Assembly (NCBI RefSeq): GCF_003334255.1
Contig: NZ_QOWU01000083.1
Reading direction: 5' to 3' (one strand)
DNA length: 11,380 bases
DNA from: Escherichia coli
Lineage (GTDB): Bacteria > Pseudomonadota > Gammaproteobacteria > Enterobacterales > Enterobacteriaceae
Shown here: positions 7,958 to 10,470 of the stretch, piece by piece
Layout: every line of letters begins with the position of its first letter
How positions within the stretch are numbered: the first letter of the stretch is position 1
Position numbers and translations under genes: made by a program
The notes under the pieces: model-generated
Database searches by the model: none
Told to the model about the DNA's origin: nothing
The model's input: the letters and a program-made list of their open reading frames with translations, nothing else

Positions 7958-8058
7958 GATGTTGTTGTTCCTTTATCTACTGCTCTGATTCTGACTACTG
8001 CAGTGTTGTTCTGTCTGCCGGGCGCACCTTCGGCTCCCGGCTGCCTGGCGGCATCCGG
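7958..8058. repeat. Copy 1 of a repeated leading-region element (77-bp core with 1 mismatch to copy 2)
   Basis: Core 7982-8058 (GCTCTGATTCTGACTACTGCAGTGTTGTTCTGTCTGCCGGGCGCACCTTCGGCTCCCGGCTGCCTGGCGGCATCCGG) matches 11304-11380 with a single T/C difference. The upstream GATGTTGTTGTTCC (7958-7971) is also shared with 11247-11260. Confidence 0.6.
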
Positions 8059-8409
8059 TCGTCAGGCCCGACTCCGACAGGCAGCTGCTGGCGCACCTGC
8101 CAGTCTCCGCCGAACCCGCTGGCGCGGTTTCGGGCTGCCGCTACGGTCCGATGCGTGAAAACCCCTGGCTTGCAGCGACCGTTCCGGTCGCGCCGCCTCT
8201 GTCGCGCCGTGGCCTGCGCTCCCGGCATCCCGGCAAAAGGCCGCCGGGATGTAAGGGGCAACGCCGTTTCGCGCACGCGCTCTCCGTCGTTGCGGCGGGC
8301 CCCTGCTCATTGCCTGCCGGGTGCCACACACCCGTATGAGTCCCTGTCGCCGGGGGCTGATACAGCCACAACCTGCCGCACTGACTGTCCAGGGTAAATG
8401 AACAGCCCA

Positions 8410-8445
8410 CAAAATTTTTTACCCAAAACCCGGTAAAAAATTTTG
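8410..8445. repeat. Perfect 14-bp inverted repeat (CAAAATTTTTTACC / GGTAAAAAATTTTG) with 8-nt loop
   Basis: 8410-8423 and 8432-8445 are exact reverse complements; an AT-rich stem embedded in GC-rich DNA, immediately after the shared 13-mer TGAACAGCCCACA. Confidence 0.5.
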
Positions 8446-8729
8446 CGTTCTGCCCAGGACAGGTGCGTCAGGCCGTGGCAGTGATGCCCCTTGCGGCGAA
8501 GGTTCTCAAACGGGTGAAGTTCATACCACAGTGAATACAGCAGCAGGTTCCCGCGAAACGTCAAAACCGCGGCTCCCGAAACTCAACGGGTGATGTTCTT
8601 TAAAAATCAGGATTTATTTCAGGCTCCGGCAATACGCATTTATTTGTTCTGTCAGTCATCCGGCTGACAGGTAATGAGAACGCAGGAACAGAAGGAGGAA
8701 AACACCGGAAAGCGTCAGATGCAGATATG

Positions 8730-8753
8730 AAAAAAGCAGGTCAGGCACCTGCT
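8730..8753 (-). terminator. Terminator-like hairpin oriented for the minus strand (stem AGCAGGT/ACCTGCT, followed by T6 on the minus strand)
   Basis: On the + strand: AAAAAA-AGCAGGT-CAGGC-ACCTGCT. On the minus strand this is a 7-bp stem followed by TTTTTT. Located about 75 bp upstream of ATG 8827. Confidence 0.35.
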
Positions 8754-8826
8754 TAATCCACGCCGTAAGAATTGTGCGACCAATTTTGACGGCATTGTTA
8801 ACCAATTTGTCATAAGGAATCCATTT

Positions 8827-9057
8827 ATGACTGTAAGCATTGTTTCACCTTCCGCAGCGGCTGTAAAGCCCCGCCGTCATCCCCGTTTCAGACGCGAAGA
8901 CATCCCCACGCCGGAAATTGACCCCGTGTTGAAAGCCTTCGGGCGACACATAGCCCGGAGTTTTCACCGGGGGCGTGGTGTACACATCCCCGCCATGAAA
9001 AACACGGCTTTCGGGCAGGTGCTCCGCACACTCGAACTGAAACGCGCTTTTAACTGA
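8827..9057 (+). CDS. Hypothetical small basic protein (76 aa)
   Basis: ATG with AAGGA upstream; R/K/H-rich product; co-oriented and followed after 51 bp by the 453-aa gene. No recognisable family. Confidence 0.45.
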   Translation: MTVSIVSPSAAAVKPRRHPRFRREDIPTPEIDPVLKAFGRHIARSFHRGRGVHIPAMKNTAFGQVLRTLELKRAFN

Positions 9058-9065
9058 TGAGGTGA

Positions 9066-9085
9066 GCCGCCCCGCGAGGGGCGGC
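9066..9085. other. Intercistronic GC hairpin (GCCGCCCC-GCGA-GGGGCGGC) directly upstream of an RBS
   Basis: Same 8-bp stem sequence as the hairpin at 7142-7160; followed by AACAGACGGAAGGAGAACATTTTATG. Confidence 0.5.
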
Positions 9086-9108
9086 AACAGACGGAAGGAG
9101 AACATTTT

Positions 9109-10470
9109 ATGACATTAGCAGCAATCACCATGACCGCCCCGGAAGCCGCCAGCCCTGTGCAGATGTACCGCGCGACCTACTCACCGGATGACAACAAACT
9201 GCGCCTGTATGCCGTGTCACGTCTTGACCCGGAGACGTATAAAAAAGTGCATGATGCTGGTTTTCGCTGGGCACCAAAACAGGCGCTGTTTGTCGCGCCA
9301 GCCTGGACACCGGGCCGGGAAGACGTGCTCCTCTCACTTGCCGGAGAGATTGAGGATGAAGACAGCACGCTCGCTGAACGTCAGGAAGCACGGGCGGAGC
9401 GGTTTACCGGATACAGCGGAAAGCGGGCCAGTGAATCCGCACAGGCACTTGATGAAGTGGAAAGACTGGCCGCGATGATCCCGCCCGGTCAGCCCATTCT
9501 TGTGGGGCATCACAGCGAACGCCGCGCCCGTCGTGATGCGCAGCGTATTGAAAACGGCATGAAACGTGCCGTGATGCTCTTTGAACGTGCGGAATACTGG
9601 GAAGAGCGGGCGCGGTCGGCACTGCTTCACGCGAAGTATAAAGAACGTCCGGACGTTCGCTGGCGTCGTATCAAAAAAATCGAAGCTGATTTGCGCAAGG
9701 CTGAAAAGACCATCGCGCAGTCGCAGAAATATCTGACGATGTGGCGGGCTGAATCGCTGGATCTGAATATGGCAAAACTCATCAGCAGTCATGACCATAT
9801 CAGCGCCTGTTTCCCGCTGGATACGTATCCGCGCCCGGCAGAAAAAAGCCAGTATGAAGGGAGCCGGTCGTTATGGTCGGCCCTGGATGATGACATCATC
9901 ACCACGGAGCAGGCCCGCGAAATTGCGATCCGCTGTCATGAACGGCAGATTCAGCATCAGCAACGCTGGGTTAACCACTATCAGAACCGCCTGATCTATG
10001 AGCGTGCCATGCTGGACGAAAGCGGCGGCGTGGTTACCCGGACACAGGATTTTGAGCCGGGCGGACAGGTTTTCAGCCGGGGCGAGTGGCTGACCATCAT
10101 CCGCGTGAACAAAAGCAACGGGGCGGTGAGTTCAGTCACAACGCCGAATTACAGTTTTCTCGGGTACAGCGGCACGATGAAAGTGACGCCCGATCGCATC
10201 ACGGACTACAAAGCACCATCGGCAGAAGAGGCTGCCATCGCCAGCCAGGCCGCGAAGCGTCCGCCGGTAGTCAACTATCCGGGGGAAGGTTTCCGGGAAA
10301 TGACAAAGGCACAGTGGGCCGCCCTGCCCCGGGACTGTAAGGCCGTGCGCAGTGTGGCAGAAGCAGAAGACCACGGGGCATACCGCTACCGCCGCACAAT
10401 GGACAATAATTTCCGCCTGGTGAATGTGTATATCACCGACATGAAAATCACGGAAATCCCACAGAAATAA
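9109..10470 (+). CDS. Conserved plasmid protein of unknown function (453 aa; possibly the DUF3560 family, unverified)
   Basis: Strong RBS AAGGAGA; long ORF with GC-rich codon usage. Central region is highly charged (R/E/K-rich, probably helical). No catalytic motif recognised by eye. Confidence 0.7.
   Translation: MTLAAITMTAPEAASPVQMYRATYSPDDNKLRLYAVSRLDPETYKKVHDAGFRWAPKQALFVAPAWTPGREDVLLSLAGEIEDEDSTLAERQEARAERFTGYSGKRASESAQALDEVERLAAMIPPGQPILVGHHSERRARRDAQRIENGMKRAVMLFERAEYWEERARSALLHAKYKERPDVRWRRIKKIEADLRKAEKTIAQSQKYLTMWRAESLDLNMAKLISSHDHISACFPLDTYPRPAEKSQYEGSRSLWSALDDDIITTEQAREIAIRCHERQIQHQQRWVNHYQNRLIYERAMLDESGGVVTRTQDFEPGGQVFSRGEWLTIIRVNKSNGAVSSVTTPNYSFLGYSGTMKVTPDRITDYKAPSAEEAAIASQAAKRPPVVNYPGEGFREMTKAQWAALPRDCKAVRSVAEAEDHGAYRYRRTMDNNFRLVNVYITDMKITEIPQK

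Follow-up and report, generated by a model that had tools for sequence, protein, structure and literature searches.

A terminator hairpin facing against its neighbours in an IncF-type leading region very probably forms the 3' end of the antisense RNA AS-pc01

Why should a terminator-like hairpin face against every gene around it? The question is raised by a small stem-loop in a stretch of 11,380 nucleotides from Escherichia coli (assembly GCF_003334255.1, contig NZ_QOWU01000083.1), the whole of which is referred to here as the window. The hairpin is followed by a run of six T on the minus strand, and a sequence-only reading of the locus had pointed out that the nearby genes are all on the plus strand, which is true of every annotated coding sequence from 4109 to the window end. 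That reading offered three roles, namely a block to antisense transcription arriving from the right, the 3' end of an unannotated minus-strand small RNA, or a structure on the transferred single strand. The second of these now appears to be the answer: with high confidence, the hairpin and its U-run are the Rho-independent terminator of AS-pc01, a cis-antisense RNA of ~104 nt at an ORF of 76 amino acids. The evidence consists of a match to an RNA family, a conserved promoter architecture, three covarying helices, a conserved terminator that faces one way only, and complementarity to a ribosome-binding site.

The annotation of the window is that of an IncF-type leading region. The parM gene on the minus strand is followed on the plus strand by a DNA methylase, DUF1380 proteins, and an antirestriction protein, and then by a 76-aa hypothetical protein (orf76), a DUF3560 protein, and a methyltransferase. 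Beyond the window, towards oriT, come ssb, a ParB-like gene, psiB, psiA, hok/sok, and a DUF932 gene. Because all of the leading genes point towards oriT, the window's minus strand is both the transferred strand (T-strand) and the template for the plus-strand genes. Leading-region genes are read from the T-strand (PMC11541004).

A repeat of the Frpo class lies directly upstream of the antisense element, in the same leading region and on the same transferred strand. The single-stranded-DNA promoters of the Frpo/ssi type reportedly go back to work by Masai and Arai in 1997. Frpo elements are single-stranded-DNA promoters needed for early, transient expression of leading genes, before conversion from single- to double-stranded DNA (PMC9849209). 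The stretch at 8159-8586 is 94% identical to Frpo2 of plasmid F and 84% identical to its Frpo1. Two further copies in the same plasmid (12011-12623 and 17388-18019 in locus L001) end ~33 nt before ssb and before a ygeA-like gene. The copy next to the hairpin presumably drives the sense transcript of orf76. As transferred-strand DNA, positions 8280-8830 fold into a long hairpin (z = -6.3), with the small hairpins of AS-pc01 outside it. A near-perfect AT-rich inverted repeat at 8403-8452, CAAAATTTTTTACC and GGTAAAAAATTTTG with a gap of 8 nt, forms the tip of this long Frpo hairpin on the transferred strand.

Other observations touch the repeat. A chromosomal CRISPR spacer of Klebsiella pneumoniae matches it on the minus strand at 8277-8308 with three mismatches; the spacer is listed in its source as "intergenic region, 2-4 hits in same plasmid," and other spacers of the same study target DUF3560 and the SAM-methyltransferase gene (PMC6965323). 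Just upstream of the repeat, two plasmids, pIP1206 and a Klebsiella KPC plasmid, carry a group II intron (RF02012) with ltrA next to it (L012 430-579 and L014 429-578, minus strand). The stretch running from this Frpo copy to the ssb copy is missing from plasmid F, and with it the whole orf76-DUF3560-methyltransferase segment, an apparent loss that is consistent with recombination between Frpo repeats. Since F is without the element, the published experiments with F do not cover AS-pc01.

On the plus strand, positions 8730-8754 read AAAAAAGCAGGTCAGGCACCTGCTT. On the minus strand, from 8754 leftward, the sequence reads AAGCAGGT-GCCTG-ACCTGCTT and then TTTT-CAT, with CAU directly 3' of the U-run in the RNA. 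The stem has eight base pairs, four of them G-C, under a loop of five nucleotides, and the first two U of the run of six are able to pair. The minus-strand hairpin with T6 is thus real by sequence, by fold, and by a strict scan, and the earlier description of it was right overall; only its string "A6-AGCAGGT" implied seven A where there are six, and its right end fell one base short of 8754, which the stem reaches. Folded as minus-strand RNA, the hairpin has a free energy of -16.1 kcal/mol (z = -4.8; none of 200 shuffles equalled it), against -11.0 kcal/mol (z = -2.5) as plus-strand RNA, where it runs into UAAUCC and no U-tract. The U-tract is found beside the hairpin on the minus strand only.

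Intrinsic (Rho-independent) terminators are marked by a GC-rich stem (5-14 bp) under a short loop with a U-run immediately 3', and this site has all three. The hairpin also stands at the end of a transcription unit with a predicted promoter on the same strand ~100 nt upstream. Under a strict definition (at least seven perfect pairs, at least four G-C, a loop of 3-8, and T6 at the stem end), both strands of the 11.4-kb window were scanned and this hairpin was the sole site; 200 shuffled windows held none. A looser scan found 19 terminator-like sites where 12.3 were expected and informs little, so that only the strict-form count is clearly non-random. With no equivalent in 200 shuffles and the element kept in 31 of 33 loci, a chance origin is ruled out.

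The identity of the predicted transcript comes from an Rfam scan of the window. A single family was returned, AS-pc01 (RF02875), described there as "Antisense to pHK01_035"; all 99 model positions are covered by minus-strand nucleotides 8832-8731, at 73.1 bits and E=1.4e-11. In this alignment the model's last helix, the third, falls on the hairpin, with the model's UUU directly after it (Table 1). The three stem-loops of the family, the last one GC-rich and followed by U's, are seen in the model alignment, in the minimum-free-energy fold, and in the covariation described below. The ~104-nt RNA folds into three stem-loops at -36.8 kcal/mol (z = -4.65). It agrees with the Rfam family in strand, in presumed position relative to the 76-aa ORF and the DUF3560 gene, in length, in its three stem-loops, and in the terminal GC-rich hairpin with U's, and it differs in the loop of SL1, the linker, and SL2. 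The closing pair of the terminator is U-A in the window allele versus G-C in the Rfam consensus.

The score of the window copy, 73.1 bits, lies under the gathering score of 79 bits for RF02875. Orthologous copies score 89.7-112 bits. The window copy reads as an orthologous allele just under the curated threshold, since locus L002, which is 95.6% identical to the window over 8700-8880 and so only 4.4% different, scores 90.4 bits at the same position. The family itself is said to stem from RNA-seq of the IncFII plasmid pHK01, published by Jiang et al. in FEMS Microbiol Ecol in 2017 (93:fix090). AS-pc01 is already catalogued, and as its terminator the hairpin is a known and ordinary structure. 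The earlier description of the small RNA as unannotated holds for GenBank and RefSeq, whose annotation has no minus-strand AS-pc01 RNA, and fails for Rfam, where the family is described. Its 3' end was correctly anticipated, as the full-model match and the conserved promoter ~100 nt upstream indicate; its placement within 8754-8826 was not, because the RNA extends as given in Table 1, taking in the hairpin and reaching into the first codons of the 76-aa ORF. For a different allele of AS-pc01, an RT-qPCR signal, from a non-strand-specific assay, was reported in vesicle RNA (PMC12370729).

Table 1. Positions of the antisense RNA, its parts, and the neighbouring features in the window
Feature	Position	Strand	Remarks
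Frpo-class single-stranded-DNA promoter repeat, ~630 bp	7965-8595	+	Three copies in the plasmid, ~92% identity
Terminator U-tract	8730-8735	-	T6 when read on the minus strand (A6 on the plus); 8735-8734 also able to close the stem
Terminator hairpin, stem-loop 3 (SL3) of the antisense RNA	8734-8754	-	Stem 8754-8747 with 8741-8734; loop 8746-8742
Stem-loop 2 (SL2)	8762-8793	-	5 + 5 bp with internal loop
Stem-loop 1 (SL1)	8809-8831	-	Complementary to Shine-Dalgarno 8814-8819 and ATG 8827-8829 of the 76-aa ORF
Whole predicted antisense small RNA (AS-pc01 allele), ~104 nt	~8832 to ~8729	-	From Rfam RF02875 match, fold, and orthologues
Predicted sigma-70 promoter of AS-pc01	8839-8867	-	-35 TTTACA 8867-8862; 17-nt spacer; -10 AACAAT 8844-8839
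76-aa ORF (orf76)	8827-9057	+	First gene of operon; translation-initiation region is the predicted antisense target
DUF3560 protein, 453 aa	9109-10470	+	DUF3560 domain
Methyltransferase, 187 aa	10517-11080	+	Related to domains of large phage/plasmid DNA methyltransferases

The predicted promoter was found by a scan of the window independent of the Rfam match, in which promoter-like matches as a class are not enriched (12 vs 11.2 in shuffles). Its spacer carries TG at 8847-8846, giving an extended -10 (TG-n-AACAAT), and it sits within codons 5-14 of the 76-aa ORF. The start that would follow, ~7 nt past the -10, coincides with the first position of the Rfam model.

Two other ways of decoding the same letters were rejected. 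Minus-strand ORFs of 41 and 49 aa run across the region; they are not the encoded feature, given that the 41-aa ORF begins upstream of the predicted transcription start and that the hypervariable body of AS-pc01 carries indels of 1, 2, and 4 nt. On the plus strand, a mini-ORF crosses the hairpin (ATG at 8727, MKKAGQAPA). It has no Shine-Dalgarno at a usable distance, and its length is not conserved, being MKKAG* in Klebsiella-type loci and reading through in L025.

The element is widespread. It was found in at least 5000 plasmids of PLSDB at 75-100% identity, from Escherichia, Klebsiella, Salmonella, Shigella, Citrobacter, and others, and the window is 100% identical to many E. coli plasmids (e.g., NZ_CP024281). 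For comparison, 18 syntenic plasmid loci were sampled to span the identity range over 8700-8880, and 13 more distant loci were taken from a collection with one genome per species (Raoultella, Klebsiella grimontii, Enterobacter, Buttiauxella, Entomohabitans, and Citrobacter werkmanii). A score above the RF02875 gathering score was obtained at the same position in 16 of the 18 syntenic and 4 of the 13 distant loci, and every such match has the same place relative to the 76-aa ORF (presumed to be pHK01_035) and the DUF3560 gene. Wherever those genes are annotated, the element stands directly upstream of them. An Frpo-class repeat lies upstream in 30 of 31 loci, at 74 to ~780 nt, and in some of them a small ORF separates it from the element.

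The motif AAGCAGG-N-CCTGCTTTTTT occurs once, on the minus strand only, in 31 of 33 loci. The exceptions are plasmid F (L020), which is without the element, and L017, a decayed copy. The latter, an E. fergusonii copy at 1321-1470 beside colicin genes, no longer has the T-run (it reads TTAATCC), and one pair of its terminator stem is G-U; no Frpo repeat lies upstream of it and its gene table has no 76-aa ORF. It looks like a decaying remnant.

The three-helix structure is well supported across these loci. In a MAFFT alignment of the 18 sequences it is 97.5% paired, versus 21-52% with slid partners, and RNAalifold recovers the same three helices, including SL2, from that alignment alone. A covariance-model alignment of 31 sequences, 29 of them distinct, has 94.3% of its cells paired and nine pairs with changes on both sides; an alignment made by such a model leans towards the modelled structure, and the independent MAFFT alignment agrees with it. 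Over both alignments, slid controls give 21-56% paired cells versus 94-97% for the true structure. SL2 shows compensatory changes on both sides in 6 of its 10 pairs. The terminator hairpin is paired in all 29 distinct sequences, with six pairs invariant and a closing pair that is U-A in 16, G-C in 12, and U-G in one. Its loops vary freely between 3 and 8 nt (GCCUG, CCCUG, CCCGG, CACUG, CCUCCCCG, UUUA, GCUA, UUUU, GUUU, and UUC).

The promoter is conserved along with the helices. Across the 29 distinct sequences, both hexamers, the TG, and the spacing of 17 nt never change, other than at the third position of the -10 and through a single deletion in the -35 of L011, a conservation for which protein constraint could in part account because the promoter overlaps the coding region. 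Around it, 7 of 17 spacer columns and all seven columns between the -10 and SL1 vary. The antisense promoter seems to behave like a functional one in this alignment, in that the adjacent columns vary even though they fall in coding residues 5-14.

A hairpin is symmetric between the two strands, so wobble pairs were counted to see which strand is folded. G-U cells number 17 in SL1 and two in SL3, with A-C cells in neither, a pattern that favours folding of the minus-strand RNA. SL2 has 6 G-U and 15 A-C cells. This excess of A-C suggests some constraint on a sense-strand fold and that the sense leader also folds there. The SL2 count speaks for a reading in which the hairpin acts mainly on the plus-strand mRNA, as an intercistronic or 5'-UTR stem-loop, a stabiliser of an upstream 3' end, or a processing site, the T-run being incidental. 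So does the plus-strand fold of -11 kcal/mol, as well as the arrangement in distant plasmids, where the TGA stop codon of a plus-strand ORF lies immediately next to the A-run and hairpin. That ORF belongs to a 75-aa family in L018 (1083-1310), L027, L028, L031, and L033, and encodes an unrelated protein of ~127 aa in L029 and L030. These differing neighbours put the start of the conserved module right at the terminator. All that seems to survive of such an ORF in the window is its last few codons.

The plus-strand role is nonetheless improbable as the main one. The plus-strand fold is the weaker of the two (z = -2.5), and neither the window nor any of the E. coli IncF loci retains the upstream ORF, although the hairpin and T6 are intact there. 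The element matches an RNA family of the minus strand that has its own promoter. A U6 run that follows a stem on its 3' side has a known role; for an A6 run on the 5' side we know of none. A plus-strand role and termination of AS-pc01 are, however, not mutually exclusive.

The hairpin could alternatively be a DNA structure on the transferred single strand, such as a priming signal or a replication barrier in complementary-strand synthesis. The best-folding sequence is indeed on the transferred strand, the three small hairpins appear in the T-strand DNA fold, and structural barriers and priming sites have been reported in leading regions (bioRxiv 10.64898/2026.01.09.698686). Against this, homology to Frpo1 and Frpo2 of F and to the two other copies in the plasmid stops at 8586-8595, 139 nt before the hairpin, and with homology ending at 8595 the idea that the hairpin is part of the Frpo repeat was rejected. 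It lies instead within 232 extra nucleotides (8596-8826) that precede the gene only at this Frpo copy. The other two copies have no such hairpin and no antisense gene beside them, AS-pc01 giving a single match in 18.9 kb. Frpo/ssi elements are long repeated stem-loops of ~250 nt that include -35 and -10 boxes; the terminator hairpin is no part of one, and its 8 bp are small by comparison and would act as RNA on the opposite transcript. A DNA structure would also require neither the promoter 100 nt away nor the RNA-family match, and would leave the near-invariant T6 without explanation. The transferred-strand role proposed from the sequence alone is for these reasons not favoured and is very unlikely. 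Just as hard to credit is a generic insulator that halts antisense transcription of any kind coming from the right and needs no dedicated small RNA. In its favour, no other strong minus-strand terminator stands between the Frpo element and the genes downstream. Against it, a conserved promoter on the same strand is only ~100 nt upstream, the interval is a structured RNA with covariation, and no minus-strand genes lie to the right within the window. The proposed block is better seen as a side-effect of the same terminator than as a separate function.

Termination of AS-pc01 therefore stands as the preferred explanation, and the question shifts to what the RNA is directed against. The 76-aa product is basic and hydrophilic. 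Its only Pfam match is weak and HU-like (PF14908, E=5e-4), and it may be a small nucleoid-type protein judging by that resemblance; one record annotates it as DUF4496. It matched no toxin family and is not the small hydrophobic membrane toxin that a type I toxin-antitoxin system of the Hok/Sok kind has as its target. Searches of NCBIfam and PDB sequences found no relatives of orf76 or of the DUF3560 protein, and no solved structure is related by sequence to the 76-aa, 453-aa, or 187-aa protein.

The closest known system in arrangement is FinP of F-like plasmids, whose target is the traJ 5' UTR. Like AS-pc01, FinP is a short plasmid cis-antisense RNA built from stem-loops, with a terminator as the last of them. 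Each shows complementarity to its target's ribosome-binding site and comes in different alleles on related plasmids. The two have no sequence relationship, and the FinP target is a transfer regulator whereas that of AS-pc01 would be a leading-region operon. FinP serves here as a working principle taken from general knowledge, with no family membership implied. Sok/hok and CopA/repA, which occur on these same plasmids, are likewise cis-antisense systems with an intrinsic terminator and loop-loop recognition, and a sok copy is present 7 kb downstream in the same leading region. They differ in their targets, the 76-aa protein being neither a Hok-like membrane toxin nor a replication gene.

These systems suggest how the locus could work. 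AS-pc01 would be transcribed leftward from the sigma-70 promoter within orf76, beginning at ~8832 and ending in the U-run at 8735-8730; that transcription actually ends at the hairpin and that the target is repressed is what we infer from the conserved features. SL1 would pair with the Shine-Dalgarno sequence and AUG of the sense mRNA, and ribosome binding would be blocked and/or a substrate for RNase III created. The cis-antisense RNAs FinP, CopA, and Sok are the model for a loop-loop contact that is followed by duplex formation. By analogy, the same sequence of events at orf76 may lead to a translation block and/or cleavage of the mRNA, and the orf76-DUF3560-methyltransferase operon would be held down as FinP does with traJ. 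The terminator would act in one direction, ending the antisense RNA before the upstream Frpo element, and sense transcripts could read through because the plus strand has no U-tract.

The position of the promoter also has consequences for timing, which we infer would depend on double-stranded DNA. The AS-pc01 promoter would require the plus strand as template, and that strand is absent from the incoming T-strand. No AS-pc01 could therefore be made until the incoming plasmid is double-stranded. Once made, it would contribute to shutting down the operon when the Frpo-driven burst is over. Frpo transcripts have been reported to prime complementary-strand synthesis (bioRxiv 10.64898/2026.01.09.698686), in which case the antisense gene, at 135 nt downstream, would be one of the earliest stretches to be converted to the double-stranded form.

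The body of the RNA shows a different pattern of variation from its ends. Among 15 loci of the E. coli type, the 72-nt body (8755-8826) has a mean pairwise identity of 72%, a minimum of 57%, and 14 alleles, whereas its neighbours in the same loci (terminator, promoter, 125 nt of upstream sequence, and the remainder of the ORF) are each ~97% identical, a contrast that is inflated because the loci were picked to span identity over 8700-8880. Population-wide, most plasmids fall at 95-99% identity over 8300-9200 versus only 80-90% over 8700-8880. The structure of the body is preserved through compensatory changes, and its hypervariability resembles the allelic specificity of FinP and CopA. A tentative interpretation, held with well under even confidence, is that hypervariability with a kept structure reflects selection for allele-specific pairing, and that AS-pc01 is a plasmid-specific switch licensed only by double-stranded DNA, the operon being freely expressed on entry and silenced once complementary-strand synthesis, perhaps primed at the neighbouring Frpo, has made the antisense gene double-stranded. 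If this is true, the AS-pc01 of a resident plasmid could repress the leading genes of a related plasmid on its arrival, or the newcomer could evade that silencing. As far as the searched literature shows, the hypervariable body and its constant placement downstream of Frpo have not been described, and the searchable literature holds no paper linking AS-pc01 to Frpo or to zygotic induction.

The locus shows how a catalogued antisense RNA can be omitted by standard annotation, and how a sub-threshold allele is missed by routine scans. It also places an antisense gene between an Frpo promoter and the first gene of a leading operon in at least 5000 enterobacterial plasmids. Zygotic induction is currently explained only by promoter inactivation. 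If AS-pc01 shuts the operon off after establishment, a post-transcriptional layer would be added to the zygotic induction programme of these plasmids.
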